DNA of 62,933 bases, the filler included, from Asterionella formosa (taxonomy: Eukaryota): NCBI GenBank assembly GCA_002256025.1. It is 2 parts of 2 records of this genome, joined end to end, with 100 filler letters (N's around TTAATTAATTAA, not from the genome) between each part and the next. Parts side by side here need not be neighbours in the genome. Positions count along the whole stretch, not along the records: positions 1 to 31,427 come from NKIB01000678.1; 1 more part is not named here. One strand, 5' to 3'. The first letter of the stretch is position 1; every line of letters starts with the position of its first letter. The translations under genes and the position numbers were made by a program. This document shows, piece by piece, positions 4,375 to 54,514 of this stretch. The notes below the pieces were generated by a model that saw only the letters and a program-made list of their open reading frames with translations, did not search any database and had not been told where the DNA came from.

Positions 4375-7338
4375 AATCCATTTCCAGCTGGGACATCTTC
4401 CTTTCAAGCAGATTCGCTGCATGTCGTGAACTGGTTTCCTGCCAAAGAGCCTCCTTCAGGGACAAATCCCAAAATGCGCTGCTTGCATGTATGGCAAGGC
4501 CACTTGCAGAGCGTGGCGATCCAAGGCCCCACCGGGCAAGGTGGGAGGAGACCTGCCCGCATTCCCTGGAAAATGCGTGTCAGTCGATCAAATGCAGTCG
4601 CCCGCACCCGGCCTTATTGCGCAACTAAAGGGAGTTCCAACTACTCAAAGGTATACTGTGGCGACGATTTTTGTGGATCACTTTAGCAGGTTGTCATATG
4701 TCCACCTGCAGAGGTTCTTGACATCAGACAATACAGTCCGAGCGAAGAGGTCGTTCGAGCACTATCGCGCATCGCATGGTGTGAGGGTATTGCACTATCA
4801 TGCCGACAATGGCCGATTTGCGGATACCCTCTTCCTTCGAGACATTGATGAGCAACGACAGGAGATTTCGTATTGTGGGGTGAATGCCCACTTCCAAAAT
4901 GGAGTGGCGGAGAAGAGAATCCGTGATCTACAAGATATGACTCATACTGCCCTTCTACATGATGCCTCGGCGAGGTGGCCAAGCACTATGTCAAATTGTC
5001 TGTGGCCATATGCGCTGCAAATGGCCAATGACGCCCTGATCAGCTCCCCGAGGCGGTTGGATGGGCGGTCAGCTGTGAGCGTCTTCTCACGTGCCGACGT
5101 GTCTCCAAAACTCATTGCATTTCGCCCATTCGGGTGCCCCGTATATGCTCTATCAAACGAGCTGGCCGCGGGGCAAGGCTTGCCTAGGGGAACAAGGGGG
5201 CACGTGTTGGTATCTATATCAAAACGGGTTTGGTGTCACCGCAATTTCACGTTGTGTTCGACGACATGTTTGAGACGGTGGGGAAAGGGGATTCTTATGA
5301 GCTTGGCTGGCTGACGGCTACTCACTTTTCAGCCAAAACTAGCCGGCGCCCTGCCGCACCTTCGTCCGACAGGAACATCCAGAACCCCACCCACCAGCAC
5401 GGCCAGCAATATTCTGATCCAACAGCCGATGACCGTGGTATCCACGAACCCAGGTGCTTCCCCTATTCTTGCGGAAGATGTATAGCTCGATGTTCTCCAG
5501 GAGTTGTCCAAGCCAGTCGTGCCTGACCTACGGGACACGGGGCAACTGCCTGAGAGTAATTGCGACTCCGTGGGCTTGGTTCGGTGGTCTCAGCAACATA
5601 AGCCCTCCAGAAGGCTTCAAGAAAGCGTGGAACAGGGTTTCCTCTGTAAGTCTTCGGTACTGGAGGATATCGAAGGGGACGAGGACTATCACATACAACT
5701 GATGATGGATGATCCTATCGCTTTTACGGCCAAGACGTCTGATCCCGATATGTTGCAAGCCAACCAGGCCCTGTGGGAACCCGACCGAAAACAGTTTATT
5801 GCGGCTATGGAGGCCGAGGTGATGGCTCACCACAACAACCATCACTGGAAGGTGGTGCCTAAGTCTTCGGTTCCCCCCTATGGTACCAAAATACTACCAT
5901 CTGTGTGGGCTATGAAGCGCAAAGGTCACATAGCCTCAAGGGAGGTTTATAAATGTAAGGCTAGACAAAACCTACATGGTGCTAAGCAGGAATATGGCGT
6001 GAACTATTGAGAAACTTATGCAGCAACCCTGTTGTGGCCACCCATCTGCTTTATGCTGATCCTGTCCCTCATGCATGGGTGGAGTACACGCCAGGTAGAC
6101 TTTACACTTGCTTATCCACAAGCAGACGAGGAATGTGAATTGTACGTGGAAATTCCCCATGGTTTCAATATGTCTGATCATTGTTTGAAGATACTGAAGA
6201 ATATTTATGGACAAAAACAGGCTGTGCGAACATGGTCTAAGCACTTGACAAAAGGCTTATTGTCTATTGGATTTGTTCAAAGTGAGGCCAATGAATGCAT
6301 CTACTATAGGGGTATGACTGTATTTATGATATATGTGGATGACGGCATCTCATTAGTCTGGATACCTGCCTAATCGATTAGTGTATTGAACTCATGCGGG
6401 CTAATTTTGATTTGACAGATGAAGGGGACATTTCGGACTACATGGGGATCCAGGTATCCAGATCTGAGGATGCTACTACTATCTCCTTGACTCAACCCCA
6501 TCTCATTGCTTCCATAGCCAATGATATTGGCTTTACCAACAAGACCAAATCTAAGGGAGTTCCGGCATCACCCACCGTTATTTTGCAGCGGGATCTCATG
6601 GGTGAAGATTTTGCTGAACACTGGTCATATCGATATATAATTGGAAAGCTCAATTTTCTGGAGAAATCCACTTGTCCCGACATAGCATACGCTGTGCACC
6701 AATGTGCCCATTTTTCGGCTAATCCAAAGGCATCCCATGCTGCGGCGGTCCGTAACATTGTTCACTACTTGATAGGGACGTCTGAGCAAGGAATCTTGCT
6801 GCAGCCCAATGAGCACTCTTTCGTGGTGTGGGCAGATGCTGATTTTTGCGGAAATCGGAACAAAGACACAAGCGTGAGTGATATGATGACAGCCAAGTCT
6901 CGATCTGGATATGCGATTACTTACACATCCTGTCCGGTGTTGTGGGCATCAAAATTGCAGACGAAGTTGGCGCTTTCCACCACTGAGGCAGAATATGTGT
7001 GCCTCAGCCAATCTCTTCGGGACACCATTCTGCTTATGAATTTGCTGGTGGCTGAGGTCAGGGACAAGCTTGATAAAGATGTGTTATCAGTTCCAGCGGT
7101 CCACTGCACCTTGTTTGAGGCTAATTCCGAGGCATTGGAGTTAGCCCGCACTCCCAAGATGCGCCCCCGCACCAAACACCACATCAACATTAAATACCAT
7201 CACTTTCGTGATCATGTGCGGCGCAAACTCATCAGCATTGAGCAAGTTGCGACTGAAGACCAGGTGGCTGATATTTTTACCAAGCCACTCCCTGTGGTGG
7301 CATTCTTACTTCATCGCAAGTCTTTGCAACGCTGGTGA
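4375..7338 (+). pseudogene. Ty1/Copia pol relic (integrase zinc finger + core, RT, RNase H), frameshifted
   Basis: HFQLGHLPF...CAAC (HHCC); FVDHFSR, HADNG, QNGVAEKRIR (DDE integrase); SPQFHVVFDD; VWAMKRK, QVDFTLAYPQA, YVDDG (RT); WADADF, LSTTEAEY, KHINIKYHHFR, ADIFTKPL (RNase H). Domain order INT-RT-RH is that of Copia. Confidence 0.95.
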
Positions 7339-7377
7339 TCTGTGAATCTGTGCAAGTTGTCTGCTTGAATAAGGGAG

Positions 7378-7716
7378 TGTGAGATATCTGATGGGTTTCC
7401 GGGTTGTGATTTGAACTCGAATTGTAACTTGCCACCGATTAATGTTTTTGTGTGATGGACATTTGAGGTTCATCTGTGGGTCTTCTTCTGGGTGTTATGA
7501 TGGCGATTGAACTATCGTCTGTAATGGGCCTTTTATGCAATATATGTGCTCATCATTCCTGAATATCTGAAGGCTTATGGGTCTTCGTTTTTCGCCGTTG
7601 TATTGGCGAGCATTTGCCTGGCTTGGATTATTGTAGATAAGGCAAAATACTTGTTACAATCATATAATTAAAATTAGACTTATTCCCCTGTGTCTACTGT
7701 CTTGCTGATTATAACA
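7378..7716 (+). repeat. Probable 3' LTR of the Copia element
   Basis: Polypurine tract GAATAAGGGAG (7367-7377) is immediately followed by TGTGAG. The right end at ...ATAACA (7716) is a guess. Confidence 0.55.
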
Positions 7717-13560: not shown

Positions 13561-14083
13561 TCTGCATGGTTGTTCTCTGGTAGATCGACTCTTCCATGAC
13601 CTTTTTGCATGGTATACATGTCGCTTGCTTGCTTTCGAACTTCATCTTCAATTTTTGCTAGTTATTTATTAATTGGCTCCCGTGGTTGCTCAATTTTCCT
13701 CAGCCTGCCTGTATTCCGATCTTTCCTGTTTTTCTGCAGTTTCAATGCGCGCTTCGTGCACATCCCCTGTTTCCTTCGTCTATAATACTACATACAGTGC
13801 AAAAGATTCGTATCTACATATACATACCCTATGATACACATACCCCATATTTGTGTGATGTCATCACCTCACCATCACACGTTCACCACCACAGAATTGA
13901 AGTGCGAATGAGAAAGATGCAACTGCAAGTATAGCTAACGGTATGTACTGGAGTATTAGCTGTACTATTCCATAGAATGGTGATAGTCAACCAAAAACGT
14001 TCTCTGCAGGTGGGCTGCTGATCTAATTTTCTTTTTCTTCAAGACTCAACCAGTTCACTTTTCTCAAATCTTAATTTTGCACA

Positions 14084-14935
14084 ATGACATTTCTTTGTGA
14101 AACGCTTCTATTAGTGAGTCTGTGCTTTTCTCCTGCCGCCAGCTTTGGCAGCAGTATGCTCCCTCACTTGATGCCCTTCGTGAGCGAGCCGCACCTGATG
14201 ACAGCAGCCGTTGTGTCAAGTTCAACAGCCTCAGTGGTTGCTGCTACAGCGTCCGCTCATTCCGTGGCGGCGAATAGCCTTCTCGCCACGTACTCAGCCT
14301 CACTTGCAGCTCACCCTCTCGCCACAAAGATGATCACGGGAGGTGTCTTATCTGTCACGGGCGACGCCATTGCTCAGTCTCGTGAGCCGGACGAGTACGA
14401 CACACGACGCGCAGTTTCCTTCATGGTCTTTGACATGACCTACCGAGCTTTGCAACACAACATTTTCCCAATCATTGGCGAAGTTTGCCGGGGCCAATTC
14501 TTCCTGGCTGCCGCTGCCTCCATCAGCCCTGTCTTGGCAGCGTCAACCGACCCCTTCTATTTTGCTGCCATGGAGCGAACGTTGGCCAGTCAACTGGGCG
14601 TTGTGCCGTTTATGTATTATCCGGCGTTCTTTGCGTTGACGGGAGTTGTGCAGGGTCTGTCTGCAGAGGGAACTGTGGAACGGGCCAAGGAGAAGTTTAT
14701 CCCACTCATGAAGAGGAACCTTTTGTTTTGGATCCCCGTTCAGTTTGTGCAATTTGGCTTTGTTGAAGATGGCCTGCAAATACCTTTTCTCTCCCTCTGT
14801 GGATTAATGTGGACGGTTATCCTTTCTGCCATGGCGGGATCCACCTCGGCATACAATGAGAAGTATGTAGCACTACCGGTCATGGAAGAAGAAAGGAATG
14901 TGAACTTGGAAGGCGATGTGGTGATTGTTAGATGA
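14084..14935 (+). CDS. Mpv17/PMP22-family membrane protein with N-terminal signal peptide (probable plastid bipartite presequence)
   Basis: YSASLAAHPLATKMITGGVLSVTGDAIAQ, YDTRRAVSF, FWIPVQFVQFGFV and LMWTVILS match the Mpv17/PMP22 family pattern. Hydrophobic N-terminus ends in AAS-F. Intact, GC-richer ORF. Confidence 0.88.
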   Translation: MTFLCETLLLVSLCFSPAASFGSSMLPHLMPFVSEPHLMTAAVVSSSTASVVAATASAHSVAANSLLATYSASLAAHPLATKMITGGVLSVTGDAIAQSREPDEYDTRRAVSFMVFDMTYRALQHNIFPIIGEVCRGQFFLAAAASISPVLAASTDPFYFAAMERTLASQLGVVPFMYYPAFFALTGVVQGLSAEGTVERAKEKFIPLMKRNLLFWIPVQFVQFGFVEDGLQIPFLSLCGLMWTVILSAMAGSTSAYNEKYVALPVMEEERNVNLEGDVVIVR

Positions 14936-15391: not shown

Positions 15392-18300
15392 TCAAAGAAC
15401 TGACGTGGCAGGGCGTGTGAGCATGGCGACCGCATGATGACCTGCATCGATAAATTGATATCCCATCATAGTCATGCAATGTGCACAAAGACTAGAACAC
15501 GGGAGTGCCTTGGTAAAATGGTCGGCTAAATTGCAAGCAGACGAGACCTGGATAAAATGGACTCTACCATGACGGACATTTTCTTGCAAAGCCTGCTTTT
15601 TTGTAGCAATATGACGGACATTGCGCGTTAATTTACCTGCATGCGCAATGATTTGTGCAGCAAAATTGTCTTCTCCAATGGAGATAGCATCATGATAAGG
15701 AATTGACATATCTTCCATGTAAATGCGTAGCCACAAAACATGTTTAGATAAGGTGATTGCTGCATCAAGCTCTGCTTCAGTAGTATTGTATGCTGTTGTA
15801 CTTTGTTTGCGGCAAAATGTAATGACTGCAGTATCATTAATCATAATGACACCACCAGAATATGCTAACCGGTCAAATAAGGCACCTCCAAAGTTAGCAT
15901 CTGCATAGCCTTTGGTAGTAGGTGCTATTCCAAGAAGAAGTTTGTTGATATTAGAAAAATGCTTCTGTTCTTGAAGTGTGGATGATAATGAGGCGCTCCT
16001 TATCCATAGGTCCTACTGCTGTTTCTCCTTTCAAGGTTCTTGGGAGTCTTATCCATATGCTGGATTTTGGATTCTATGGTAAACAATCCTGCCGTGGATT
16101 TAAATGCTTTTTAGTGGTAACAGAAGCGATCTCTAATCATCGTTGGATATTCTGTCATCAATCACGCACTACCCCAGCAGTGAAACTCGTCCTTTGGATC
16201 ATCCAGCACTTGCAGATCCGTACTGGCAACCCTGTGCGCCATATCAGTATGGATGCGGAATTATTTGCTAACCACACGTTCAAAACCGAGTTATCTCTGC
16301 ACATCTTTGTGGAGCCCACTGGCGCATACTCATCCTCGCAAAACGGAAAAGCTGAGGTCTCCATTAAACTTATTGGACTGATGGCTCAATGTCTCTTATA
16401 TGGAGCACAAATGGATCCCTCACTATGGTATTTTGCTGTCACCTATGCCACTTTTCTTCTTAATGTTTGGCCTAGTGATGCCCATAATGGGCGGTCGCAC
16501 CCCTCATGAAGTGTTCCACAAACATGCACCTAATTTATCAATGGCCTTTATTTTTGGCTCTCCACTCCATGTCAAGAATCGACGCGCCAGTTGGCATCGT
16601 CCTGATTCTAATACACTTCTTGGGACTTTTGTTGGTTTACAAGGGACTGCGCACATCTACCAATATATTGGGGATTCCGGCCGGGTCCAATATGCTCATC
16701 AAGCTGTCGTTGATGAACTTTGTGTTCACAGACTTCCTAGTGATTGGTCTCCAGCAGCAAAAGCTCTCCTGAATCACTCAGCTGTTGATGTTTCCATTGC
16801 AACACACACGGCCGCTTTGAAAACAGCAATCTCTGATCTAATCCCTAGTTGTTTACCATGGCTAAATCACGACATGTCCGTTACAGAAATTTCTGACCTC
16901 TTACCAGATGAGGCACATGGCTTACTTCTTCATTACCATGCCGACCTATCACGATATGAGATAATTGGGATCGAACCCAATAGTGCATTTGGGCGTTGTA
17001 TGACAAAGGGCCTTTTACAAATATTAAAGGGTAGAGTGCTGTTACAGATTAACGGTAATGACGTACACACTATCAATGATGCTGAAGAGATACTTGATGG
17101 ATGTGTACTTGCTACACATGGGCGACTTTCATTAAGTGATGATCCTCATGATCCACAATTCGTTCCTGGTATGCTCACCAACCTCACCCTACTGTTGGTG
17201 AAGAAATCACACATGAACCATGACTGGAAAGATACTTTCTCCTTTGGTGCAGGAGATATCAGTATGCTTTGCACAGGCTTTACTGTCTCTTCCATCACTT
17301 CTCATCCCAAAACACTCTGTCCATCATCGTTTCATGAAGCGATGAAAGGACCTTTCTGAGAAGAATGGAACGCGGCGCTCTTTCATCATCTAGATAAGTT
17401 TCATAGCATTGAGACATTTGGCGCTCCAGGCCTTCCACCCCATGATGCAACTCTGCTTCCGGCTGTCTTGGTTCTCAAACATGTGGTGAATTCAGCCAAA
17501 CAGATAAATGATCGCAAAGTCCGGCTATGTGTGAATGGCAGCTATCAAATTAAAGGCGTGGATTATACTGAATCTTTTGCTCCCACCACACTTGCCATGT
17601 TGATCAAAGTTTTTTTGGCTATTGGTACATACATGCATTACGATTTCTATCATCTCGATATTAGCAATGCCTTTCAAAATACTCCAGCTCCACCTAATGC
17701 AGCAGGGAACCGTATCTGGCTCAAAGTTTTTCCTGAATATATGCTCTGGTATCAAACCAGATTCCCAGTTCAATATGAAACTATTAAACACACATTCCCA
17801 CTGGCAAAACAATCTTGGAAAAGCTTGGGTGTGGAAATGTTTGCTCATGTCCAAGGGCGCAAAGATGCTTCTCGAGAATGGGGAGAACATGTTGAGAAAG
17901 TGCTCTGTGGACAACTGGGCCTAATGAAAAATCGCGCAGATCAATTCATCTACCAAGGTACAATCAATCAATAACATGTCATCTTAGCCAGAGCCACTGA
18001 TGATAATTTGGTAGGAACTTTGTCACTGGATACATACAAACGTATTGTTACTACTCTTGAATCTCACTGGAAGATACACAATATGCTGGGACAAGTCTCT
18101 CATTTTTTGGTCTCAGATTCCTGTTTAGTTCCAATTGTATGACAATTAACCAAACTCATATGATTCATGAAATACTTCAATATGTTTATTGTTCATCCTG
18201 GGATAAACAAATTATCTTGCAAACCAACATGATTCCTATGCTCAGTGGTGTAAAACATGAAGAAGCGCTTGCTAGTTGTATACCATACTCTCCAAGTGAA

Positions 18301-20520: not shown

Positions 20521-23500
20521 TGGATGGACATTTGACTGGAATGTGTGAAACCAATGTTAATTGGCGAAATTTTTCATTCCGGGATAAATGGGAAAAGAAG
20601 ATGTCAAGGGGATGATATACAGAACTTCGTTTCAGCCATGCATTGTGTAATGAAGGAAAAGAAATGGTTCTTCAGTGTGGCGGGGTCAGCATGTTTTGTA
20701 CGGCACGCTTTCACTCCAGACTATTGGACTGTGGCTCCGACCAGGAACTGGGTAGGTGGTCATGGATGCGTTTTAAAGGGACAAGGGAGTTCAACTTTGT
20801 AATCATCACAGCATATCAAGTTAGTCAGAAAAGACATTCCGGGCTTGGTATGGAGACAACATATATGCAACAATGGAGAAAACGAAAAATTTCCACAATG
20901 ATAGTTGTAATCCCCGACAGCAATTTGGGAAAGCTCTTAGACAACAGATCCAATTTCTAGAAGCAAATGGAGATGAATTGATTCTGATGTTGGATGCAAA
21001 TGCAGATTTTGATGATGAGGAATTTTTTAACATGGTGTCTTTAACACAGATGGTGGATCTGCATGAAGGCTTACACACAAATAAAATGCCATCAACATAC
21101 AATAGAGGAAATCGAAAACTGGATTATATTTTGGGAACAGGAAAAATCTCAGCAGCTGTTACCAAAGGTGACATGACTACCTATGCCGATGGTTTAAAAT
21201 TTTCAGATCATCGCGCTTTGTTCATAGATCTTAAAGAAACGAAAGTTTTTAACGATAAAGGTAAAGACATTACAGCAAGGAAACATCGCGGACTCAGCAC
21301 AAAGAACAAGGATCAAGTAAAAGTATACTTGAAGTTGGTGAAGAAACAATTAACAGCCCATAATATTTTTGAACGTTGTCGGAAGCTAAAAGAATCGGCA
21401 CCCCATATGCAAGTCCAAGCGTTAAAACGGGAGTTGGACAGCATTTACACACAAGTTACAATTGCGGTATTACATGCAGAAAGGATGACATCCCGAGTAA
21501 ACTTTGGGCGTGGGTGGTCCCCACAGTTAGCAAAAGCAGGCAAAGAGGTAACATTTTGGAAAAACTGCTTAAGATGCCACAAGAAAGGGCGGGGTGATCC
21601 AGTTATGCAATTACCAAAGCCCAAACTCAAGGAATGTGGTCTCACAACATCAAGGTTGGAACAGGAATTCTTCAGGAATAAACTAGATGATGCATGGCTG
21701 AGGTAAAATATGGTACAAGACAATTCCAAAATACTTCGGAAACAATATTTGGAAAAACGATTAGAAGAACGAATTTTCAAAGTTGATAAACCCAACATTA
21801 AAAAACTCAAGGCAATACTCTCAGCCGATTATACAACCAAACTATGGCCAAAATTAAGAAGATACGCAAAGGGTGAAATTCGAACAAGCCTTCTTAATCG
21901 GTTAGAAAAACCTATATATGATGAGACAGGGGAGATCTTAGAGTTTCAAACCATCATGGATTCAGAGGAGACTTTCAGTCACTTAATTCAGAGAAACCTC
22001 ATACATTTTGCTCAAGCAAGTCAAGCCCCCTTTGTTGAAGGGCAGTGTGGACAATTTTTTTCTCCTTTCCAATTTAATGACTTTTCCAAGTCCATTCTTA
22101 ATGGGACAGTGGATCTCACACATTTGGACTTGAACCAGGCTATTAAGGCATGCATCAGAGAAATGGCAAACCCCCGCCCTAATGAGATGGGAACATCACC
22201 AGTCTTAGTGAATATTACAATTGAAGATTATAAATCCGGGGTTTAAGGCAGTATCAGAGAATACATCATCATCGCCTAGTGGACGTCACTTGGGACACTA
22301 CCGAGCGGCATTACAATCGGACTCTATATGATTTGTTCATTCAATTCTGATGTCCCTTCCCTTTGAATACGGTTTTACACTGGACCGGTGGACAAATGCG
22401 ACACAAGTGATGTTGGAAAAATAGTGGGGACACCACGTTTGGACAAATTGCGACTGATACAACTGTTAGAGGCAGACTTGAATATGGTAGTACGAATAGT
22501 TTTTGGAGGGAGGCTAATTCATAGAGCTGAGGACCGGAAGACTATTTCCTCTCTTCAATGGGGATCCAGGCCAAATAGGTCATCAATAGATGCAATTCTC
22601 ATGAAGGGGCTAACCTACAATGGGATAAGAATTCTCATAAAAGTTGCCATAATATTTAACAATGATGGAAAGGCAGCATTCGATCGAATGGTACCATCTG
22701 TTGGAGCAATTGCACTCTGCAGGCTAGGGGCAAGCAAAAACTCAGTTCAAGCTTTATTACAAATTTTGGAAAAGATGAAATATTGAGTTCAAACAGCACT
22801 TGGACTATCTGATGATTCTCAATCTAACCTTCAATTGGGAGGGACTTGGGAACCTTGCAGGGATCTGGGGCTTCCCCTTGTCTGTGGTTGGCTATAACTT
22901 GCGTTTTACTAGGGGCTATCTCCAAACGGTCATCAGGAATGATACTCAAAAACCCACGGAAAAATCTGTGTCAACACCGAGCAGCGGAAACCTATGTAGA
23001 CGACAAAGAATTGATCTTATCCCTGGATCACAATCACTTGAACATGATCACAAAGGAAATGCAAAGCATAGCTCAATATTGGGAGCAATTATTATACACA
23101 ACAGGGAGAGCTTTAGCTTTGGAGAAGTGTTTTTTCGTGGCCATGGTGTGGGAATTCCAAAACAATGAATACAAATTAAAGAGTAAATTGGAGATAAATG
23201 TCGAAATACAGTTAACATCAGGAGGTGACTACCAACAAATCACCACAATACCGCAGAAAGATGCACAGGAGGGACCAAGAAACTTAGGGGCAATGCTGTC
23301 CCCAGAAGGTAATCCCAGAGGGTAATAATAATGACGAACTTCGGACACTTATTCAGCAAGGCAAAACCATGAGTATGAACATATCAGCCTCCAAACTACT
23401 TTGATAGCATATCAAACTATGCTGCAACCAGCTATGAAATATCCGCCATGTGCATCGACATTCACCATGAAACAATGTTACCAAATAGATCAATCTTACC

Positions 23501-24620
23501 TCCCTACTTTGCTTACCCATATGGGCTTTAATAAAATTACCAAACGCCTACTGTTCTTCGGACCGCCCATTCTGGGGGCTTTTGGGTGTAGAGACACTTT
23601 CACTGATCAAGGAATTGCACAGCTTCAGTTATTATTGGGACACTTACGTCACAACGATGATATCGCCGAAATCATATATATTTTATTGGAACAGCTTCAA
23701 TTGACAATGGTAGTCTGGGAAACCGTTTCAGTAGTCAATTGCACCAGTGATGAGGTATATAGAACCATGCTGGCTCACATGTGTTTGGACATTTGTTGAC
23801 CATTTTCAAGCGAAAATACATACAGAAGAGTCCTGGGAGTTACAACCACAACGGACTAATGATCAGTGCTTAACGGACATTTTCCAACACCAACAATATA
23901 AATTGAAACCAAAAGAGCTCAAACGTCTTAATGCCTGTTGATTATATCTTCAGGTTACCACCATTGCGGACATTACTGATGGATCAGGCGCTTTGATCAT
24001 TACAGATTACTTAAAGGGACAGCGGTGTCCTGAAAGGAAAAGCTTATGGGAATGGCCTACACAGGAGCGACTGTCCCAGGTAGCCTGTAGATTGTGGAAA
24101 TGGTGCATAGGACAGTGTTTATGCGTATCCCCAAAGAATTTTCGCTTGCAAACAAAGCTGGGACCCTGGCTTACCAGGAGCCTATGCACCAGCAGTCATG
24201 GACTTATCAACTTGACAGAACAAACATGCGTTTAATTAAACAGACCCAGGAAGGCTTATACTTGGCCCATCTGAAGGGTCACTCAGCACGAAATTCCACA
24301 AGAAATTACAGTATTTTGTTTACAAATCCAGCTGGGTTAATTCCAGTTTCAATTCACAAAACAACAGCCGCTTTTTATGAGATAACAGGATTTCTGCCGG
24401 CCTCCAAGCATCAACGCCACCAGGACATCTGAGGAAATTTAGATCTCTCACAGCACCTTGAGGGAATTAATAAACTCATGGCAAAGAAGGAATTTCTAAG
24501 AAAATCAATGGGTGACACCACATTTCCTTCTGATCTCACCACTTTAAAACGGAACTTTATCGACGGAAAAGTAGTTTTGGCATCTGATGGATCTGTTACG
24601 AAGTCCCCACCTTCAGCAAC
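20520..24620 (+). pseudogene. Non-LTR retrotransposon ORF2 relic: AP endonuclease, RT, start of RNase H
   Basis: GMCETNVNW, LGRWSW, ITAYQV, LMLDAN, LDYILG, SDHRALFID (APE); SSSPSGRHLGHY, KLRLIQLLEADLN, QWGSRPNRSS, NDGKAAFDR, LQGSGASP, YVDD (RT); VVLASDGSV (RNase H). Many stops and frameshifts. Confidence 0.93.
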
Positions 24621-26649: not shown

Positions 26650-27885
26650 ATTGTGCGAACCACTAAGCTATTACCCAGTATCCCATTACAGCTAATAATT
26701 GATGTTAAGATGGATTTCACCCAAAAGGCCTGACTTGTGGTTGCTGGTGGACATATGACTGAGCCACCAACCGAAATGACATATTCCTCAGTTTTCTCCC
26801 AAGAAAGAAGTGTTCGAATAGCATTCCTCATGGCAGACCGAAATGGGCTCAGCATACATGCAGTGTGCAGACTACATCAGGAATGCTGCTGGCCCTAAAT
26901 TCGGGATTGATGAAGGGAAAAATTTATCATTGTTAGGGCCCATGGTTTGAAGATCTCTGGGGCTGCATGGTGCTCAAATTTTGCTCATGCCCTACAAGAC
27001 CTGAGTTTAACACCTACATATGCAGATCCAGATGTATGGATACATCCTGATGAAATATATGGAATCCAACAAGTCGAGGATATCTATTTTTAGTGATTAG
27101 AAACAAAGACATGTGACACTTATTGAAAAATTATTCGACATACTTACTTATTGTCAAATGAATATGCGATGCATACTTATTGACAAATGAAAATGCTTAC
27201 TAATAATTGTCAAAGCAAGCAAGAACATATTGACGAGATCAAGGAAAGTGTAAGATGTCTTGTTCAGGATAACATGAGTAATTAGGCAGGAGCAAGGCCA
27301 GATAGACTATTAACATATTGCTCAGAAATAAATGTAAGGTTTCAGCTTTAGTGATCTTAAACATGAGATCTGTGATATTCTCAAGGAATAAAGTTAGACA
27401 AGTTAACAGCGTCCAGCAACCAAGACAAAATGAGACCACTACTATGAATATTGCCAGGTATATGTTGATGACATTCTCTGCCTATCTGAAGACCCTACAA
27501 GTGCTCTCAAACAACTCGAACTAAATTCCTTTAACTATTGCTGTAAGGATGTGGGTCCACCGTCATACTACATAGGTGCAAAAATTGGAAGATTCATCAT
27601 TGAAGAAACTGGCAAACAAACATGGTACATGTTGGCAGAAAGTTAATTAGAAAAGCACTTCCTGTTATTGAAGATTGTTTTGGATCTCTCAAGACCATTT
27701 ATGGCCATTCACGCCTGGGCGCCCCTGCCACTCAAGAGTACCACCCAGGATTAGATGCTACAAAAGTCCTCTTCCAGGAAGACATTGAACTTTATCAAAC
27801 TTCCATTGGGATCATGCACTGGGCCATTGAGTTGGGGCAGATAGACCTTCCACAATGTGCAGTTACCATTCCAAGTGGGACATAA
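26650..27885 (+). pseudogene. Third Copia-type RT fragment, heavily decayed, with unrelated insert at ~27050-27440
   Basis: IDVKMDFTQKA*LVVAGGHMTEPP..TYSSV, SVRIAFL, AGPKFG, ADPDVW, YYEYCQVYVDDIL, GPPSYYIGAKI, YQTSIGIMHWAIELG. Confidence 0.85.
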
Positions 27886-28384
27886 TTCTTCAAAATGAAG
27901 GGCAACGACCTGAGGTCAGTTTTGCCTAATTCTAGAATTGCTAGAACTTGTATTATATACACCAATCCAATCAGAATGACTATAAACAGGAGGAGCTATA
28001 AGCAAGAGAATGATTGAAGCTTGTTGTGCTTCATGAGGGGAAGTGACCTAAAGTTTGGTAGCAACAATACATGAACAGAGGGTCTACCATGCAGACAATT
28101 TAGACATTTTTATGGCTACTACCAAAAGTACTTGGACTTGGCCACAAAGAATATCGAACAGGTTTATCTGTTCAGATTAGTCCAAAACCATATCCCGAAA
28201 AAGAAAAGGTGTAGATTGTAGACCTTTTTACAAACTCATGTAACCAATTTGTCACCTTTTTCCATCAGGCCTAATGAAAAAGCAACACAGTTTAGGAGGT
28301 TAGTACATAGGTGATAATTGCTTGGCATCTACTTGATTATTCATTCTGACAATGTAAGTCACAACAAAACAAATTGACATTGCT

Positions 28385-30520
28385 GTAGCCTACAGTGGAC
28401 ATGATGATGCACACCACAGTTTGGAAGAGGCCACAGGCACATTTGTATGTGACTTTTTAGCTACTACTACAACATACCTTTTCTTTGAGGTCTCTAGTCT
28501 CTGAAGTTTCCTGTTTGCAAGAAGGTAGATTTTGCAGCGAAATCCAAACGTGGGTGTTAGTCATGAAAGCATAACCAAGTTTACACCAATGTGAGAGCAA
28601 TGCTCCCCATGGTAAGATTTCATGATGATGCCCAACACATCAAGGAAGATGATGGACATACCTTTGGAGCCTTGGTACCCTTTGGAGCCTGTTGTTAAAG
28701 AATAAAAATGCTTTCGATTAGTCACAATAGAGTCGATTCACATTGCAGTACTAAATGGACCCGATCAATTGAAGAGCTTGAGATCAAAGAACTCAATGGG
28801 TTTTTTGGGTTAATCTGCAAATAACATCAAGCAAGGTACTTTCTCACTATAACTACATACCTTGGTCACAGGAACAACTGGAGCGGTTGGAGCCTTGGAA
28901 GCCTGAAGGAAAAGGATCAAATTGTGAAGTTAGTGAGTGAATATACAACAGTAGCCCACAGTGGACATGATGATGCAGACCACATTTTGGAAGAAGCATA
29001 CCTTGGGAGCCTGTTATAAAAGAATGAAAATGTTTTCGATTAGTCACAATAGAGTCAATTCACATTGCAGCATTACATGAACCCGATAATCAATGATTTT
29101 GACAACAAAGAACTCCAGGGTTTTCTTGGACAAATCTGCAAAATACCATCAAGCAAGGTGCTTTGTCACTTTAAGTACATACCTTGGTCACAGGAACAAC
29201 TGGAGCGGTTGGAGCCTTGGAAGCCTGAAGGTAAAGGATCAGATTGTGAAAGTCAGTGAGTGTACAACAGTCGCCCACAGTGGACGTGATGATGCACACC
29301 ACAGTTTGGAAGAGGCCACAGGCACATTTGTATGTGACTTTCTAGCTACTACTACAACATACCTTTTCTTTGAGGTCTCTAGTCTCTGAAGTTTCCTGTT
29401 TGCAAGAAGGTAGATTATGCAGCGAAATCCAAACGTGGGTGTTAGTCATGAAAGCATAACCAATTGACATTGCAGCACTAGTGCATGTGCAAGTTTACAC
29501 CAATTTGGGAGCAATGCTCCTCATGGTAAGATTTCATGATGATGCCAACACATCAAGGAAGATGATGGACATACCTTGGTACCCTTTGGAGCCTTGGTAC
29601 CCTTTGGAGCCTGTTGTTAAAGAATGAAAATGCTTTCGATTAGTCACAATAGAGTCGATTCACATTGCAGTACTAAATAGACCGGATTCATTGAAGAGCT
29701 TGAGATCAAAGAACTCAATGGGTCTTTTGGGTTAATCTGCAAATAACATCAAGCAAGGTACTTTCTCACTATAACTACATACCTTGGTCACAGGAACAAC
29801 TGGAGCGGTTGGAGCCTTGGAAGCCTGAAGGTAAAGGATCAAATTGTGAAGTTAGTGAGTGAATATACAACAGTAGCCCACAGTGGACATGATGATGCAG
29901 ACCACATTTTGGAAGAAGCATACCTTGGGAGCCTGTTATAAAAGAATGAAAATGTTTTCGATTAGTCACAATAGAGTCAATTCACATTGCAGCATTACAT
30001 GAACCCGATAATCAATGATTTTGACAACAAAGAACTCCAGGGTTTTCTTGGACAAATCTGCAAAATACCATCAAGCAAGGTGCTTTGTCACTTTAAGTAC
30101 ATACCTTGGTCACAGGAACAACTGGAGCGGTTGGAGCCTTGGAAGCCTGAAGGTAAAGGATCAGATTGTGAAAGTCAGTGAATGTACAACAGTCGCCCAC
30201 AGTGGACATGATGATGCACACCACAGTTTGAAAGAGGCATACCTTGGGAGCCTGTTATAAAAGAATGAAAATGCTTTAGATGAGTCACAATAGAGTCAAT
30301 CCACATTGCAGTATTGCATGAACCCGATTAATCGACGATCCTGAGAACAAAGAACTCCATGGTTTTCTTGGACAAGTCTGAAAATATCATCAAGCAAGGT
30401 GCCTTGTCACTATAAGTACATACCTTGGTTGCAGGAACAACTGGAGCTGTTGGAGCCTTGGAAGCCTGAAGGAAAAGGATCAAATTGTGAAAGTTAGTGA
30501 ATGTACAACAGTAGCCAGCT
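28385..30520. repeat. Tandem array of ~320-bp exon-intron units with a 922-bp higher-order duplication
   Basis: The 42-nt exon recurs at 28861, 29183, 29783, 30105 and 30424. 28861/29783, 29002/29924 and 29183/30105 are each offset by exactly 922 bp. Confidence 0.9.
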
Positions 30521-30824
30521 GCCGGTTTTGCTCTCTTAGTCACTACAACATACCTTGAGGACTCTTTTATGCTGTCAGGGTTCAGATGATGGAGAAGAAA
30601 GACAGATTCAAAATGTAAGTAAAATGTAAAACACAAAATCTTCGAAAGCAGCAGTTTTATGCTCCTCGACCGAGCTTCTCACTCTGCACCAGACATTGAT
30701 TCAACGCAGGCGGATGCAAACGCATGGATCATCCCTGTTTTTGGCGTACCTCTGAGGTCATGGTAGAGTCTGCCATGGTCGAGTAAACCGTAGCAAGTAA
30801 GAGAAGAGAACGAATGGCCTTCAT
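28478..30824 (-). CDS. Microexon gene encoding a secreted Lys/Pro/Ala/Thr-rich KxxK + RxL (silaffin-like) protein; 3' end not identified
   Basis: 14 exons, all CAG|exon|GT and all multiples of 3: 30824-30750, 30571-30554, 30465-30424, 30251-30243, 30146-30105, 29932-29924, 29824-29783, 29610-29575, 29395-29363, 29224-29183, 29010-29002, 28902-28861, 28688-28662, 28510-28478. The spliced product is 153 aa with no stop and starts with a signal peptide. Confidence 0.8.
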
Positions 30825-31427
30825 GTTGATGAGTGAGAAACCGGGTATATTGATGTTCAATTTTGAGTTTTATGAAACTCCTTGTGGTATGAAACGTTTG
30901 GAACCGATATACCGGTAGGCCAATAGTCTAATGAATTTTGCCCAAGTACCGGTACCGGTAATTATGTTCAAAGCAAGTCTTATGACTAATTCCCGAGTAC
31001 CAGTAATTTTGATCAAAGCAAAGAGACCATAATGTTTTCTTTGTTATCAACAAAACAACATCATGTGGTCGACATTGTTTAATTCTTGTTTAGTTATCTG
31101 ATATACCGGTAAATGAATCTTTTGCAGTCATACACAGCTGTACCTGGTACCAGGTACCCCGGTACCCTTTGCCAGTCATTATGTTCAGCCGGTGAGTTCA
31201 GGACCATGGTGGCTACTACCGGGGTACGGGAATACCGATTTGTGTGTTACAGATACCTTCATGCAATGTCAAGCAACTGTCTATGTTATATGGCGTTTTG
31301 GGGGGGTACCAGGTACAACCAAAAAACTGAGAGTCATCTTTATTTCACCCTATGTATGTTAGGACTCAAGTTATTTTACCGGAACTGGAAAATTAAAGCC
31401 CAGATCAATTTTGCTGTAGTCCTGTTC

Positions 31428-31527
31428 NNNNNNNNNNNNNNNNNNNNNNNNNNNNNNNNNNNNNNNNNNNNTTAATTAATTAANNNNNNNNNNNNNNNNN
31501 NNNNNNNNNNNNNNNNNNNNNNNNNNN
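31428..31527. other. Artificial contig/scaffold linker (N-run, TTAATTAATTAA, N-run)
   Basis: A six-frame-stop spacer embedded in Ns. Confidence 0.9.
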
Positions 31528-41627: not shown

Positions 41628-43282
41628 TTACTGTCCCGCTGCAGTAGCAGCAGTCATGGACATATGGTGTTCTGTTGCTTGCTTATTACTACGACTATTG
41701 GTTTTTAGTTTTATGATCATACGATCCTAAAACTATGATGATTTACTATCCCACTGCAGTAGAAACAGTCCTGAACATATGGTGTTCTATTGGTTTTTAG
41801 TTTTACGATCATACAATCCTACAACTATGATGATTTACTGTCCCACTGCAGTAGCGACAGTCCTGAACATATGGTGTTCTATTGGTTTTTAATTTTACAA
41901 TCGTACGATCCTAACACTATGATGATTTACTGTCCCACTGCAGTAGCAACAGTCCTGAACATATGGTGTTCTGTTCCTAGTTTACTACTCCGACTACCCC
42001 CCGTTTATCACTTACTACCTGTAACTGGTACTCTGTATATATATATGATATATTGTTATTGTCATATGATGTACCGGTACACATGAAGAGCTCCCAACCA
42101 AAAAAGGGGCTTAAACAATTTGCTACCAAAACCCTGGCGGCAATTGAATGGTCTAAATAATTAGTTTCAACGGACGTAGAAAACATCGATGCAAACAAAT
42201 TTCAGAAATTATACCGGTACACGTAGTCGTGGAAAACAATGGACATATAGTGCATTGAGTATTTTTGAATTATGTATATGCGAGTATGATCATCTTAACC
42301 ATATCAGATGTTCCATATCGAGAGCGCCTTTGAATTTTTGTAAATGTATAACACTTCATATATACATGTATATTTACAAATTTTATTACTATATTCATGG
42401 CATATATATTTTTGAAATCGTTCTGTCATGTTTACAAACAATACCTGCTGCTTCATGAAAAGATACGTCACAGTAAAGCACATGACAAGAAAAGAAAGTT
42501 TATGCAATACATAACGAAAAACATTGTGACTTCGACACATTGCGCCTTCGAAGGATGGAGAATGTTTAAGGTAATGAAACCATCAATGTGGTACTTGGAT
42601 GACAATCGTTGGGAGGCAGGCAGGACAACAACAAATTGTTAACTAAACGCACATTTCCTTTTTTCTCAGTTGATTCAACTGCTCGTTTCGCTTGTTGGGG
42701 AGCACCAATGTAAAACAAAAACAAATTGCGTAAGTGCTCTTGTCACTCGTTGGACCTATTCACTTCTGTTGGAACAAAACCAACAAAACGTTTACCTTCA
42801 CTCAAAGTTAAGATGACAAAAATGAACTGGTAAGTATTATTCGACAACATTGGATACCCGAAACTTACTTATTCAAGAATTTACTGACAAGTTACTATTA
42901 CAGACTTGTGCATCAGTTGCATTGATTTGTGGTAAGTGAAGCAAGAGGATACGATGGAATTGCGTGTTCTTGTGTCAATGTAACATGACTAGCTAACAAA
43001 TCATTCCTTCTCATTGTTACTGTAACTGCATGCATAGGAAAATAAAACCGATCAAACGGAATAGCCGGCGAGATCACAATGACACTAACAGCAGGGAGAG
43101 AGACACAACATTAGTAAGGCATTGCTTGGCACAAGATTCAGAAAAGAGGAAGAAAAGGGTGAGACAGGAACAATATACATTGAGCCGAGTAGAGAGAGAA
43201 ACGTTGGGTCGCTGGCATGTAGATTAATAGATAGCATTGCTTAATTTGATCCTGTATGCATGATACTTTTTATTTGCAGACG

Positions 43283-46277
43283 TCGGTAACAGACAGTGAA
43301 CAAATTGAATGGTACCGACATGGTTCTTGTGAGAAATCAGTGCTGCAAAACTTGGTATAAAATCAGTTTCATACCAGGCATTGGTATTCTCACATTTTGA
43401 ATAGTATGCTTCATTGCAAACTGTGATTAAATAAACTCCTAAACAGCAACATGAAATGCAATTGAATGTGGGATATAACCTTTTGAATTTTCGCCCTCCC
43501 CAAATATGAATTGACCCTTCACCTAATTCCAAGGCTTCTTGAACTGATGAGGCATATCTTCTTCTTCTTGTCATTTTTCTTTTTCTTGTTTGTGTAGGAG
43601 CTACAATGATTTCATAACTTATACAATCCCCATCCGGCTCCTTTTCTTCTGTGTTGCAATTGGCAGAAGATTGCAGCATGTTGCCCTCTATCATGCCTTT
43701 GACTGAGTTGCCTGTTGAAGACAAAGACGGCAGCAAGTTGTCTGTGCCACAATCTAGCTGTAGCTGTTGAAACAAGTGAATACCCAGATTTTCGTTTCTC
43801 TTTTCTCTCAGGTTTTTCATCATCGCTGCTGCTGATCTCATAGTCACTGGTCTACTCATAATCATTTGTTGATTGAGCTTGAACACTGTTGCTAACATCA
43901 GGTCCTTCCAAAATTTCAGCAAAACATTGTGAAAAGTCACAGCCACTGAATGTGGTGTCACAGACATTGCCAAGCTGTGGCAATGTCAACTCCATGGAGA
44001 CAGAGTCATTGGTGTCACTGATCTCTTGGGTTTTTCATCATCGCTGCTGCTGATATCATAGTCACTGGTCTCCTCATAATCATTTGTTGATTGAGCTTGA
44101 ACACTGTTGCTAACATCAGGTCTTTCCAAACATTCAGCAAAACGTTGTGAAAAAGTCACAGCCAATGAAAGTGGTGTCACAGACATTGCCAACCTGTGGC
44201 AATGTCAACTCCATGGAGACAGAGTCATTGGTGTCACTGGGATTAAGGGTCAAGTCATACATGGATTCCACAACAGCACGGAATCTACTGCTAGCTGCCA
44301 CATCCATGCGCTCTTGGATAGTTGTGCATCTGCAGATGCTGTCTCTGCTGGTATCTGGCATAATGGGATCAAAATCAATCCCAAAACCGGTTTCATATGC
44401 AGAAACATCATTTTTGGCCCAACCACATTGTTGGTTCAGAATTGAATTAACTTCTCTAAGGTATTTGGTCCAGTTTGGACGGAGTTTTCCCTTTTGAACT
44501 TCACTTGCAAGTACACTGTTCATTACACATTTCAAAAGTCTGTTGATGTTTTCGACTGAACCCTGATCACTGGGCTTTAGGGGCCTACCAGTGACTGTCA
44601 GTATTGTTTGATTCCACCTTTTCAACATACCCACAACTTGTTCAGCTGTGAACTCAGAACCATTATCTGTGTGAAAGATATGCGGATATCCAATCAATCG
44701 AAAGAGAGAGTTTAATTCAAAGCAGACATACTTTGCATTTTTGTTTGGAATAGCTCTTAAATAGCATAAGCCAGTGAAGTGATCCTTCACAACCATAATC
44801 TATCGCATTACCTGACCATAAACATTGCGTCGCTCATTGGCATGATAATCAATTAAGTCAATTTGCATGCGATCATGAATTTCAGCAGAATGTATAGGAC
44901 ATCGGGCTCCCTTAGATTTCGGAATTTGAGGATGTGCATGAATACACACAGGACACACACTGATAAATGCATTTACATGTTGTATTGTGATATTGTAAAC
45001 ATGACTATTAACCTCTCTCCATGTAACAGATGATTTTTTCAAGTGACCAAGACTCTAGTGAGCATCATATATGGCATCAAACATTTCCTTGCATTGAAGA
45101 AGCTTTCTCCCCACATTATCTCCTTTTTTCACACTATCTCTCCAGATAACATAGAGGCTTTTTATGAGATTGCCTTCCACATCTTTCTTTGATCTCACTG
45201 TATACTTTTTTACAAGTGAATAACCAATTCGATGCTGTCGCCATATCTCTGGATTATCCCAGTTTTCAATAAAATACACAACTTCATTTTATTTCTCATC
45301 AATTATGTCACATGATCTAGTTTTTCCTGTTCCTGTTGTGTTATACGTAATTTCATTGTATTTCTCATCAGTCATGTCACATGACCCTGCTTTTCCTGTT
45401 CCTGATGTGTTCTTTCCTTTGTTCCTGCTGTAATTCTTGCAGTCTTTTTCTTTGTTCTTGATTTAGCATTTTCGATTCTCTTTGCAGCCCATGTTGCAGT
45501 CATTGTTCCGGCTTCCACTTTTGGAGTTTCTCCTGGTGGTACTGTTGCCTTTTCATTCCTTGTTGCAGCCGTTGTTCCGGTTTCCGTATCGACTGGAGTT
45601 GTACCTGTGTCCGCCTTTTCATTCCTTGTTGTTGTCATTGCTCCAGTTTCCGCATTGACAGGAGTTGTACCTGTGCTCGCCTTTTCATTCCTTGTTGCTG
45701 TCGTTGCTCCAGTTTCCTCATCCACAGGAGTTGTACCTGTGCCCACCTTTTCATTCCTTGTTGCTGTTGTTGTTCCGGTTTTGGCATTGACTGGAGTTGT
45801 ACCTGTGCACGCCTTTTCATTCTTTGTTGCTGTCGTTGCTCCGGTTTCCGCAGTGACTGGAGTTGTGCCTGATCCCACTTTTCATTCCTTGTTGCTGTCG
45901 TTGTTCCGGTTTTGGCATCGACTGGAGATGTACCTATGTACGCCTTTTCATTCTTTGTTGCTCCAGTTGTTCCGGTTTCCGCATGATTGACTGGAGTTGT
46001 ACCGGTGCACGCCTTTTCATTTCCTTGTTGCTATCGTTGCTCCGGTTTCCGCATTGACTGGAGGTTTGCCTGATCCCGCGTTTTCATTGAAAAAACCAAA
46101 AGCTACAGCGTTGAAATGCGTGCGAGCGGATTCTCTCATTCTCTGTGCATCACCAATACTGACAGTGGCATTGCCATGATCATTGGATGAAGATGTAGAA
46201 ACATATGAGAATTCACTCACCACATACTCTTCATCACTACTGTCTTCATTGCGATTCTTCTTCTTCGAAGAATTCAT
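43283..46277 (-). pseudogene. 5' half of Ginger-like ORF: repeat-rich N-terminus, H2C2 finger, DDE integrase core, start of Ulp1-like domain
   Basis: ORF-track fragments 46017-46277, 45372-45878, 45055-45279, 44800-45042, 44134-44796 and 43224-43973 carry the motifs in order. Confidence 0.88.
45540..46075 (-). repeat. 60-bp coding minisatellite (~9 units, TGTTPVNAETGATTATRNEK)
   Basis: The unit GGAGTTGTACCTGTG..CGCCTTTTCATTCCTTGTTGCTGTCGTTGCTCCGGTTTCCGCATTGACT recurs at 60-bp period. Confidence 0.9.
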
Positions 46278-53225: not shown

Positions 53226-54514
53226 CTAAACCGGTTGTGAACCTTCCTGCTCCATATACTCTTGATATTTTATGTAACGCTTTTCTTCGCGTGCGATATA
53301 CTCGTCAAACCGCTTTGGCAAATCAATGGAATGCTGTACCCAGCCACCGTCTAGGGGATGTTGTATCGAAATAGAATGGGCACACAAAAAGAGGGATCGG
53401 CCAATAGTGCTTCCATACAGCTCGTCGCCAACGATTGGACACCCCAGGACCTCGGATACGTGTTTCCGGAGCTGATGCTTTCTACCAGATTGCGGGTTAA
53501 GCTCAACCAAACTTAAGATTCCTTTTGTAGTTTGCACAGTTCTCAGCAATTTCCAAATGGTGATAGACGGTTTCCCCTCAATAGGATGTTCAATCCGTTC
53601 ACCATGTGAAGGTTCACCCTCCAGGAGGGCCGTATATGTTTTGTGGACTTTCCGCTGTTCAAACTGGTCTGCCAAATGAATCGATGCCTTCTTTGTTTTG
53701 GCCAACACCAGCAGCCCCGACGTTAGGGAATCCAAACGGTGGACAAGGACTGGATACTCCAACGCACTTTCTGTTCCTTTCATTGGTGGTTGCAAAACAT
53801 GTGGAGCAACTCTATATTAAACCGTGTGAAAATGAGAGTGATACTTTTTATCAGTCAATACTAAACATACACTTGAAAATCTATGGTCTTACCTCAACAC
53901 TGAATTGTTATTAAAACCTCCTTTCGATAGCGAGTGGCAAATCATGCCTGATGGCTTGTTGACTATGGCCATTTGATCATCCTCGTAGACGACAGGAAGT
54001 GGTACGATAGGCTTTCCATACGATAAGCCTTGATAACCGTCAGAGCGATGAGAGTTTCGCCTCAAAATGATATCTGAAGGAAATACTCGAGTATCGGTTT
54101 TCCCTTTTATTTCTATTTGGTCTCGTTTGACAATGATGTCTTTTTTCCTGTAGTAATTTGGATTTAGTGAGTAGAATACCGAAAAACTAACATTCGTTCA
54201 TCTTACGAAACGCACCGTATTGCACGTATGGCCATTGACCTAGATGGAAAGAGACTGGGATCTAGTACCATCATCGCAATCGGCAATGTAGCGTTTGACG
54301 AAGTTGTCAGGTGCGCCTTTGGGCGCTCCTCCCATAATTTCCCTGAAAATCCATTCTTTGGGACGTTCCATTCATTGGTTTGATCTGGTGAGTTCATGTC
54401 CACAATGGCGCCGATAATAAAAGATCGACATCTTGCCTTTTGTGGAACAAACGACCGACAGCATACAATTGACAACCAAAACGTCAACACAGACCCTATT
54501 CTAATTGTGCTCAT
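53226..54514 (-). CDS. RluA/RluD-family RNA pseudouridine synthase, 3 exons, probable plastid presequence
   Basis: Exons 54514-54216, 54147-53893 and 53811-53226 join in frame across GT-AG introns. Motifs VYEDD..AIVNKPSG, VHRLDSLTSGLLVLAK, GRKHQLRKH, PIVGDELYG, LCAHSISIQHP. Confidence 0.93.

Follow-up and report, generated by a model that had tools for sequence, protein, structure and literature searches.

Results

A gene of thirteen micro-exons

The 62,933-nt stretch of Asterionella formosa DNA analyzed here (assembly GCA_002256025.1; hereafter the window) carries on its minus strand a gene that extends from ~30856 to ~27726 and consists of 15 exons, namely an exon for a putative signal peptide, 13 micro-exons and a terminal exon with one codon, the stop and the 3′ untranslated region (3′UTR) (Table 1). 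An initial annotation of this DNA had flagged the stretch 28478-30571, which stops at exon 14. The 13 internal exons are 9-42 nt long and account for 384 of the 465 coding nt, and the reading frame is open from the ATG through to the stop in exon 15. The internal exon lengths that the initial annotation listed (18, 42, 9, 42, 9, 42, 36, 33, 42, 9, 42, 27 and 33 nt) are exact, all of them are multiples of 3 and end in AAG as it stated, and all 14 introns lie in phase 0. It was also right that any subset of the internal exons could be skipped in frame, since every one of them is phase 0-0. Exon 1 codes for a 25-residue N-terminus with a signal-peptide-like hydrophobic core.

Table 1. Features of the gene, of its repeat structure and of its surroundings, in window coordinates; a slash marks a splice site or an exon junction.
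Feature	Coordinates	Strand	Description
Exon 1	30750..30856	-	At least 32 nt 5′UTR and 75 nt coding; ATG at 30824; donor GAG/GTACG
Exon 2	30554..30571	-	18 nt, HKRVLK; holds the first RxL motif
Exon 3	30424..30465	-	42 nt, ASKAPTAPVVPATK; acceptor side RNA-confirmed
Exon 4	30243..30251	-	9 nt, APK; predicted only; CAG acceptor, AAG/GTATGC donor
Exon 5	30105..30146	-	42 nt, ASKAPTAPVVPVTK; from sequence
Exon 6	29924..29932	-	9 nt, APK; predicted only
Exon 7	29783..29824	-	42 nt, identical to exon 5
Exon 8	29575..29610	-	36 nt, APKGTKAPKGTK; both boundaries in RNA joints
Exon 9	29363..29395	-	33 nt, ETSETRDLKEK; RxL motif
Exon 10	29183..29224	-	42 nt, identical to exon 5; exon 9/10 junction as loose end
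Exon 11	29002..29010	-	9 nt, APK; predicted only
Exon 12	28861..28902	-	42 nt, identical to exon 5; exon 12/13 joint in RNA
Exon 13	28662..28688	-	27 nt, APKGTKAPK; both boundaries in RNA joints
Exon 14	28478..28510	-	33 nt, identical to exon 9 (RDL); exon 13/14 and 14/15 joints in RNA
Exon 15	27726..28270	-	GCC TGA (last Ala and stop), then ~540 nt 3′UTR
Nested tandem duplication	28661..30523	.	Five ~320-nt units: 42-nt exon, 172-nt intron, 9/27/36-nt exon, next intron
Two super-units	28340..30146	.	922 + 885 nt; exons 5-9 and 10-14 with introns; recent pair
RluA-type pseudouridine synthase	53229-54370	-	Ordinary gene; one short GTGCGT...TACAG intron
Mpv17/PMP22 family ORF	14075-14932	+	Ordinary gene
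ORF with villin headpiece and cofilin/gelsolin-like domain	55383-56105	-	Ordinary gene

In a scan of both strands of the whole window, AAG/GTA[TC]G occurs 14 times, always on the minus strand; 13 of these sites fall in the flagged stretch, and the fourteenth lies at 55871. Upstream of each of these 13 AAG donors, at the exact distance expected, there is an in-frame CAG acceptor. As a codon, the AAG at the exon ends is nothing special, since AAG serves for 24 of the 27 Lys in the gene; in-frame AAG-GCN codon pairs occur 8 times within exons without an intron, compared with 11 times at junctions.

Introns and splice signals

The introns are 88-207 nt long. Thirteen of the 14 have the donor GTATG, 13 the acceptor CAG, and 13 a branch motif (YTRAY) that precedes the acceptor by 27-46 nt; intron 14, between exons 14 and 15, measures 207 nt and has a TACTAAC branch site before its acceptor. 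Intron 4 (30147-30242) is 96 nt long, a multiple of 3 without an in-frame stop; if it were retained, the product would gain 32 residues without a change of frame. Retention of any of the remaining 13 introns would bring in-frame stops or a frame shift.

A scan of 27400-31400 against Rfam at E <= 0.1 gave no matches, and thus no sign of a snoRNA or other known RNA in the conserved introns. A BLAST comparison of the introns, the 3′UTR and the upstream flank against the remainder of the window gave 68 matches, of which only two lay outside the gene, and no introner-like spread is therefore seen within the window. Both of these are 19-25-nt stretches of the upstream flank, not introns.

The initial annotation considered such an exon density unusual for a diatom, and this holds within the window, where the pseudouridine synthase gene shows only one short intron (~82-90 nt, over residues 78-444 of its homologue). 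The mean for Phaeodactylum tricornutum is 0.7 introns per gene (PMC5859163). The gene is an extreme outlier in exon density for a diatom.

Spliced transcripts in public metatranscriptomes

A screen of public RNA data found 12 runs, from freshwater, lake or algal metatranscriptomes, that contain 5-36% of the sampled words of 27400-31400. Contigs, rather than reads, were aligned from four of these runs (X1, X2, X3 and X5, from two studies), and the joints, loose ends and contig pieces described below are the listed ones, with 27 further loose-end rows and 387 further contig pieces outside the list.

Eight of the 14 junctions are supported by canonical GT..AG joints or loose ends (exons 1/2, 2/3, 7/8, 8/9, 9/10, 12/13, 13/14 and 14/15), with 9/10 and 2/3 seen as loose ends. 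At the 5′ end, contigs span the whole of exon 1 (30750-30856) and a joint departs precisely at 30750. Exon 1 is joined to an 18-nt exon and this to exon 3 in several variants, in which the first residues of the 18-nt exon are changed and RVLK is still coded, and loose ends link the reference exon 2 to exon 3. The exon 7 donor is joined to exon 8, a mapping that is common to the identical exon 5, and exon 9 is found both in the exon 8/9 joint and at the 9/10 loose end. At the 3′ end, a 572-nt contig of X2 with a depth of 955 covers 27726-28269 and jumps to 28477/8 through a GT..AG intron.

Eleven joints are listed. Eight are in constitutive order when identical exons are allowed for, one is non-canonical and of low depth, and two are canonical but off the model. 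Three of the joints look like long skips (28509 to 29574, 29609 to 30104 and 29394 to 29583), and they give no evidence of skipping because the exons that they join are identical to the constitutive partners: exon 9 equals exon 14, exon 5 equals exon 7, and exon 13 equals the first 27 nt of exon 8.

In X2, contigs of unspliced introns have a depth of 13-29 compared with 955 for the locus-specific 3′UTR contig, and over the four runs the figures are 12-29 for unspliced introns and hundreds to thousands for spliced contigs. The 268 nt past the 3′ end have a depth of 0 in all four runs. This is the pattern that mRNA with a trace of pre-mRNA would give. Intron and UTR contigs with no mismatches are present in lake and freshwater metatranscriptomes, and the summed contig depths of the family members reach 10^4-10^5 in lake metatranscriptomes. 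The gene thus probably yields one of the major products of a freshwater diatom that forms blooms.

Diverged relatives are expressed as well: beyond a 42-nt exon there are loose ends with PPK-ATK-GP..., ahead of one there are loose ends with ..TEGTRDLKK, and signal-peptide variants occur. Among the rows listed (40 of 67), 25 single-letter differences fall inside 28271-30749, all of them in introns. We rejected this distribution as evidence of constraint, the exon positions being swamped by deep spliced contigs.

The conceptual product

The conceptual product has 154 residues and an isoelectric point of ~10.4, and is composed of 17.5% Lys, 17.5% Ala, 14.3% Pro, 13.6% Thr and 7.1% Ser, with one Tyr and no Trp. 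As judged by eye, residues 1-18 start out basic and lead through a core rich in Leu to small residues ahead of a likely cleavage site. RxL motifs occur at residues 28 (RVL), 97 and 148 (both RDL), each at the end of a unit, and RVL lies ten residues past the likely signal-peptide cleavage site. In silaffin precursors, RxL follows the signal sequence and stands at repeat ends as a probable endopeptidase site (PMC4557024). The putative RDL cleavage sites that the initial annotation had pointed to are thus present, and they are retained: RVLK and RDLK persist in variant transcripts, and RDLK is also found in a related protein, P0001, described below.

The product contains 15 KxxK motifs, 10 of them created across exon junctions, as the initial annotation had noted for many, and one stretch of 13 residues with 5 Lys; exon 8 together with the preceding Lys forms this sole five-lysine cluster. 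KxxK is a context of lysine modification in silica-associated diatom proteins (PMC4557024), and clusters of 5 Lys in 12-14 residues have been described as silica-targeting signals (PMC9650480). Silaffins are in addition typically Ser-rich and phosphorylated, phosphoserine being important for the targeting of tpSil3 (PMC4557024). We therefore find the RxL placement and the clustered KxxK and pentalysine of silaffins in the product, but not their richness in Ser.

Related sequences and taxon

The query for the searches of protein collections was a 53-residue translation of exon 4, intron 4 and exon 5, which in the window form a single frame free of stops. Among proteins of 94-2000 residues, one of two candidates was a match (P0001); among proteins of 29-93 residues there were no candidates, and an exhaustive HMMER search of 1.84 billion representatives gave no matches. 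There is no spliced form of the product in the large protein collections searched.

P0001 is a 132-residue genomic read-through open reading frame (ORF) on a 676-nt ENA metagenome contig from another assembly. It aligns collinearly from the last part of intron 8 through exon 9, intron 9 and exon 10 into intron 10, half of which is covered. The 42-nt exon is identical in 14 of 14 residues and RDLK is kept, whereas the alignment as a whole reaches 49% and the intron translations are far more diverged; the exon-intron layout is therefore conserved in a related locus. At that locus two successive introns are open in frame, and the gene caller made a read-through protein of them, which illustrates how the family gets mis-annotated in public collections. 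A scan of JGI metagenomes with a 24-nt core of the 42-nt exon found a single locus, on a GC-rich bacterial contig, which we rejected as a chance match.

Two other ORFs of the window bear on its taxon. For the Mpv17-like ORF, all three top clusters of the embedding-based Atlas comparison consist mostly of Bacillariophyta, and for the pseudouridine synthase ORF this is true of the cluster at rank 2. A diatom origin of the gene is plausible.

Origin of the array by duplication

The array consists of tandem duplications nested within one another. Its period according to Tandem Repeats Finder is 319, with 2.9 copies and 88% matches, and a repeat family (D1) has five copies at a spacing of 319-322 or 600 nt; in two other families the copies lie 885 nt apart at 97% identity (D3) and 914 nt apart at 91% (D4). 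The alignment of the two super-units contains 850 matches, 23 mismatches and 61 gap columns, and their identity is 97-98%, introns included. Introns 5 and 10 match in 172 of 172 positions, introns 6 and 11 in 98 of 99, and introns 7 and 12 in 166 of 172. Exons 5 and 7, which lie within one super-unit, are identical (42/42) compared with 25 mismatches over 168 aligned positions in the introns downstream of them (Fisher P = 0.0026). The duplication within the super-unit is older than that of the super-unit itself. The exons are also under constraint, as they are preserved far better than the introns both in this older duplicate pair and in P0001.

The 42-nt exon has five matches in the window, compared with none expected from 100 shuffles; four of the five copies are identical, and the fifth, exon 3, differs from them at 3 of 42 nt. 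No difference separates the three 9-nt exons from one another, nor the two 33-nt exons, and the 27-nt exon is the same as the 36-nt exon less its last 9 nt. The 33-nt RDL exon and its downstream intron recur, in diverged form, as exon 2 and intron 2. The array thus holds only about four independent types of module, and the all-phase-0, all-Lys-ending pattern therefore mostly reflects shared descent and not 13 separate events.

The introns tell where the 9-nt exons may have come from. Introns 4, 6 and 11 correspond to intron 9 without its first 42-47 nt after GTAT (intron 4 against intron 9: 93 matches, 3 mismatches, 42 gaps), and the introns that precede the 9-nt exons are homologous to those that precede exons 8 and 13. 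Each 9-nt exon has the look of a deletion derivative, in which the three opening codons of an exon of the exon 8 type are joined, through an AAG/G microhomology, to the donor of the RDL exon's intron. Because the flanking introns are homologous to the parental ones, both the acceptor and the donor of the 9-nt exons would be inherited, and in the parental contexts these sites are verified by RNA.

Variation in the modules is also seen at the DNA level. An unspliced contig of X1 has an exon 8 that is shorter by 9 nt (one GTK unit fewer), a second X1 contig appears to be without 9 nt inside a 42-nt exon, and the super-units of the reference differ by one GTK unit and one 42+9 block.

Surroundings of the gene

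Upstream of the gene, 30860-31400 is occupied by repeated TACCGGTA and GGTACC-rich short motifs, and beyond these lie two 44-N gaps (31428-31471 and 31484-31527). In X2 and X5 the RNA contigs over 31018-31400 have depths of 130-380 and numerous loose ends, which points to transcription of a repeat or element common to other loci. Retroelement remnants are found at 4400-7400, 16380-17975, 20825-23800 and 43200-44800; they include ORFs for RVT_2 (Copia-type reverse transcriptase) and one for an integrase core. A weak endonuclease/exonuclease/phosphatase match stands beside a run of plus-strand ORFs that may be like a long interspersed nuclear element (LINE). Base skews are positive across 20-33 kb.

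Discussion

We suggest that the array forms a genuine nuclear gene, strongly expressed in what is probably a freshwater diatom, that it was built by duplication and is spliced constitutively, and that it codes for a secreted, silaffin-like polyprotein precursor. For this model as a whole we estimate a probability of about 0.6. The precursor would comprise a signal peptide, a short propeptide ending in RVL, and two similar lysine-cluster peptides, each ending in RDL. It would enter the endoplasmic reticulum, be cleaved at the RxL sites, have lysines modified in the KxxK context, and pass into or onto the silica cell wall. At the level of the gene, some four ancestral modules, of phase 0-0, starting with GCT or GAA after the CAG and ending in a Lys AAG that forms the exonic half of the donor, gave rise to the micro-exon array as blocks of exon plus intron were duplicated in tandem, one duplication nested in another. 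The symmetry of every module allows unequal recombination to change their number in frame, and the modularity would thus be played out chiefly in the DNA itself, as differences among alleles, strains and paralogs.

Several observations weigh against parts of this model. The diatom origin rests on the embedding-based nearest clusters of two ORFs, and the signal peptide on inspection by eye. Ser makes up only 7.1% of the product and there is just one five-lysine cluster; as silaffins are typically Ser-rich and phosphorylated, a role in silica is not secure. No homologue of known function was found in the searches of protein collections. All of the RNA comes from mixed natural communities and was seen as contigs, and in X5 the exons are deep while the 3′UTR of this locus is almost uncovered, so that much of the exon signal there must come from relatives. 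The six junctions that flank the three 9-nt exons are not among the listed joints and loose ends, and the full constitutive isoform is to that extent unproven. Finally, two canonical joints depart from the model: one leads from the end of an exon-3-type exon to an in-frame AG inside exon 9, with a depth of 1477 in X3 and 113 in X5, and the other from such an end to the start of exon 8, with a depth of 4.1 in X2.

The strongest competitor accepts the same gene but sees in its product a generic extracellular Pro/Thr/Lys-rich protein, such as a mucin-, extensin- or adhesive-like protein or part of an organic casing, with no direct role in silica. The high contents of Pro, Thr and Ala, the low content of Ser and the single five-lysine cluster would all fit such a protein, and no match among known silica proteins turned up in the searches made. 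The TAPVVP-type stretches of the product, moreover, resemble glycosylated linker sequence. On the other hand, the pairing of regular KxxK with RxL, both directly behind the signal peptide and where repeats end, is what has been described for silaffins, cingulins and other silica-associated precursors (PMC4557024), and the missing homologues weigh little, as silica-associated proteins are commonly reported to be without alignable homologues (bioRxiv 10.1101/2021.09.18.460806). We regard a generic protein as a serious but clearly less probable explanation than a silaffin-like precursor.

How the transcript is spliced is a separate matter. The initial annotation had proposed that the symmetric micro-exons serve regulated, combinatorial skipping in the manner of schistosome genes, which would tune the number of lysine clusters and the presence of RxL sites. 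Every internal exon is indeed phase 0-0, exon skipping is on record for diatoms (PMC5859163), and the two off-model joints could be read in this way. The proposal nevertheless fares poorly, as no joint requires skipping: eight of the 11 are constitutive once identical exons are allowed for, and the two off-model joints have sides of 22 nt, were found at 90% likeness, and stem from communities that contain diverged relatives. Shorter paralogs or alleles may explain these two joints as well as alternative splicing does, and they are not assignable to this locus. In X3 the joint of the exon 8/9 type has a depth of 5796, compared with 1477 for that of the exon-3-type end to the inner AG. A joint from exon 3 to exon 5 would have been mappable, yet no joint between two 42-nt exons is listed. 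The short introns with their strong signals favor constitutive removal, intron by intron, and the symmetry of the exons is accounted for by descent from a few duplicated modules. Regulated skipping is therefore an improbable explanation of the array, and the transcript is most likely spliced constitutively, intron by intron.

The inner AG lies at 29384/29385, 12 nt inside exon 9 (29384-29395); the same sequence is present in exon 14, and its use gives ...TK/TRDLKEK.

For the 9-nt exons themselves, neither the absence of joints that involve them nor that of a direct 42-nt/42-nt joint counts for or against inclusion, because a 9-nt piece cannot be placed by the aligner, the exons are repeated, and many rows fall outside the list. 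From the inherited splice sites and the short, strongly marked introns, we consider it likely that the 9-nt exons are included in the transcript. The X2 loose end reading PPK-ATK-GP... after a 42-nt exon was considered as a homologue of a 9-nt exon and rejected; together with P0001 and the ..TEGTRDLKK loose end it fits an 18-nt exon of a relative, homologous to exons 8 and 13.

A broader version, to which we give as little credence as to skipping in this one gene, is that of a diatom family of micro-exon biomineralization genes in which every lysine-cluster or RxL module has a symmetric exon to itself and the number of modules varies both through rapid turnover of exon-intron blocks and through regulated in-frame skipping or alternative acceptors. 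The abundant joint of a 42-nt exon to TRDLKEK in X3 and X5 would then be one regulated event. If this were true, the length and charge of the silica-forming peptides released at the RxL sites would be tuned, and the family would be the first splicing system outside flatworms to resemble that of the schistosome micro-exon genes, with 9-nt exons handled by an intron-defined machinery.

A non-coding tandem repeat, or a dead duplicate, with an accidental exon pattern is a very improbable reading of the array: all exons lie in tandem repeat, the introns of the youngest copies are about as alike as their exons, and the window is rich in retroelement remnants, but RNA is spliced at the predicted GT..AG boundaries of eight junctions at depths of hundreds to thousands, the frame is open from the ATG to the stop in the last exon, and exons are conserved above introns in the older duplicate pair and in P0001.

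Silaffin-type proteins shape the silica of diatoms, and their fast evolution makes them hard to trace and compare. A silaffin-like gene with the present architecture suggests a route for fast growth and shrinkage, in which each peptide module is a symmetric exon with its own intron and unequal recombination changes their number without a frameshift. Automatic annotation would almost certainly miss or garble such a gene. If the 9-nt exons are confirmed, the gene would furthermore be a useful test case for micro-exon recognition in a protist with short introns.

Comparison with known systems

A full-text literature search (silaffin exons/introns; diatom microexons) found no description of a micro-exon silaffin-like gene. 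The closest parallels at the protein level are the silaffin precursors, Sil1p of Cylindrotheca fusiformis and tpSil1-4 of Thalassiosira pseudonana, whose signal peptide has a putative counterpart here and with which the product shares the RxL motifs and Lys-rich repeats ending in RxL (PMC4557024, PMC9650480), as well as the KxxK spacing and the 5 Lys in 12-14 residues, here 13 (PMC9650480). Low complexity, a basic character and the lack of detectable homologues beyond close relatives are also common to both. Unlike the silaffins, the product is poor in Ser and rich in Pro, Thr and Ala. The cingulins of the girdle bands of T. pseudonana share repetitiveness, KxxK regions and RxL with it (PMC4557024), but have alternating regions rich in Trp or Tyr, in contrast to the near absence of these residues here.

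At the level of the gene, the likeness to schistosome micro-exon genes (MEGs) drawn in the initial annotation stands for the architecture, as MEGs encode secreted proteins, as would the present gene, and most of their coding sequence is likewise split into very short, symmetric exons that stand between a longer exon for the signal peptide and a terminal one. Variation of MEG proteins through exon skipping is documented. The likeness does not extend to the introns, which reach up to 5 kb in MEGs, with exons of 3-81 bp (bioRxiv 10.1101/2023.06.21.545858), compared with introns of 88-207 nt, not kilobases, and exons of 9-42 nt here. The resemblance is one of architecture and not of family membership, as there is no relationship in sequence or taxonomy.

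Tandem duplication of symmetric exons is a well-known principle in repetitive secreted proteins, and the fibrillar collagen genes, with their 54-bp phase-0 exons, are an array of this kind. Collagen-type arrays share with the present gene symmetric phase-0 exons that correspond to whole peptide repeats and are multiplied together with their introns, so that copy number changes without a frameshift. The exons here, in contrast, go down to 9 nt, in a host lineage that is normally poor in introns (PMC5859163). In contrast to the collagen-type arrays, too, the youngest copies in the gene described here are still 97-100% identical, introns included.

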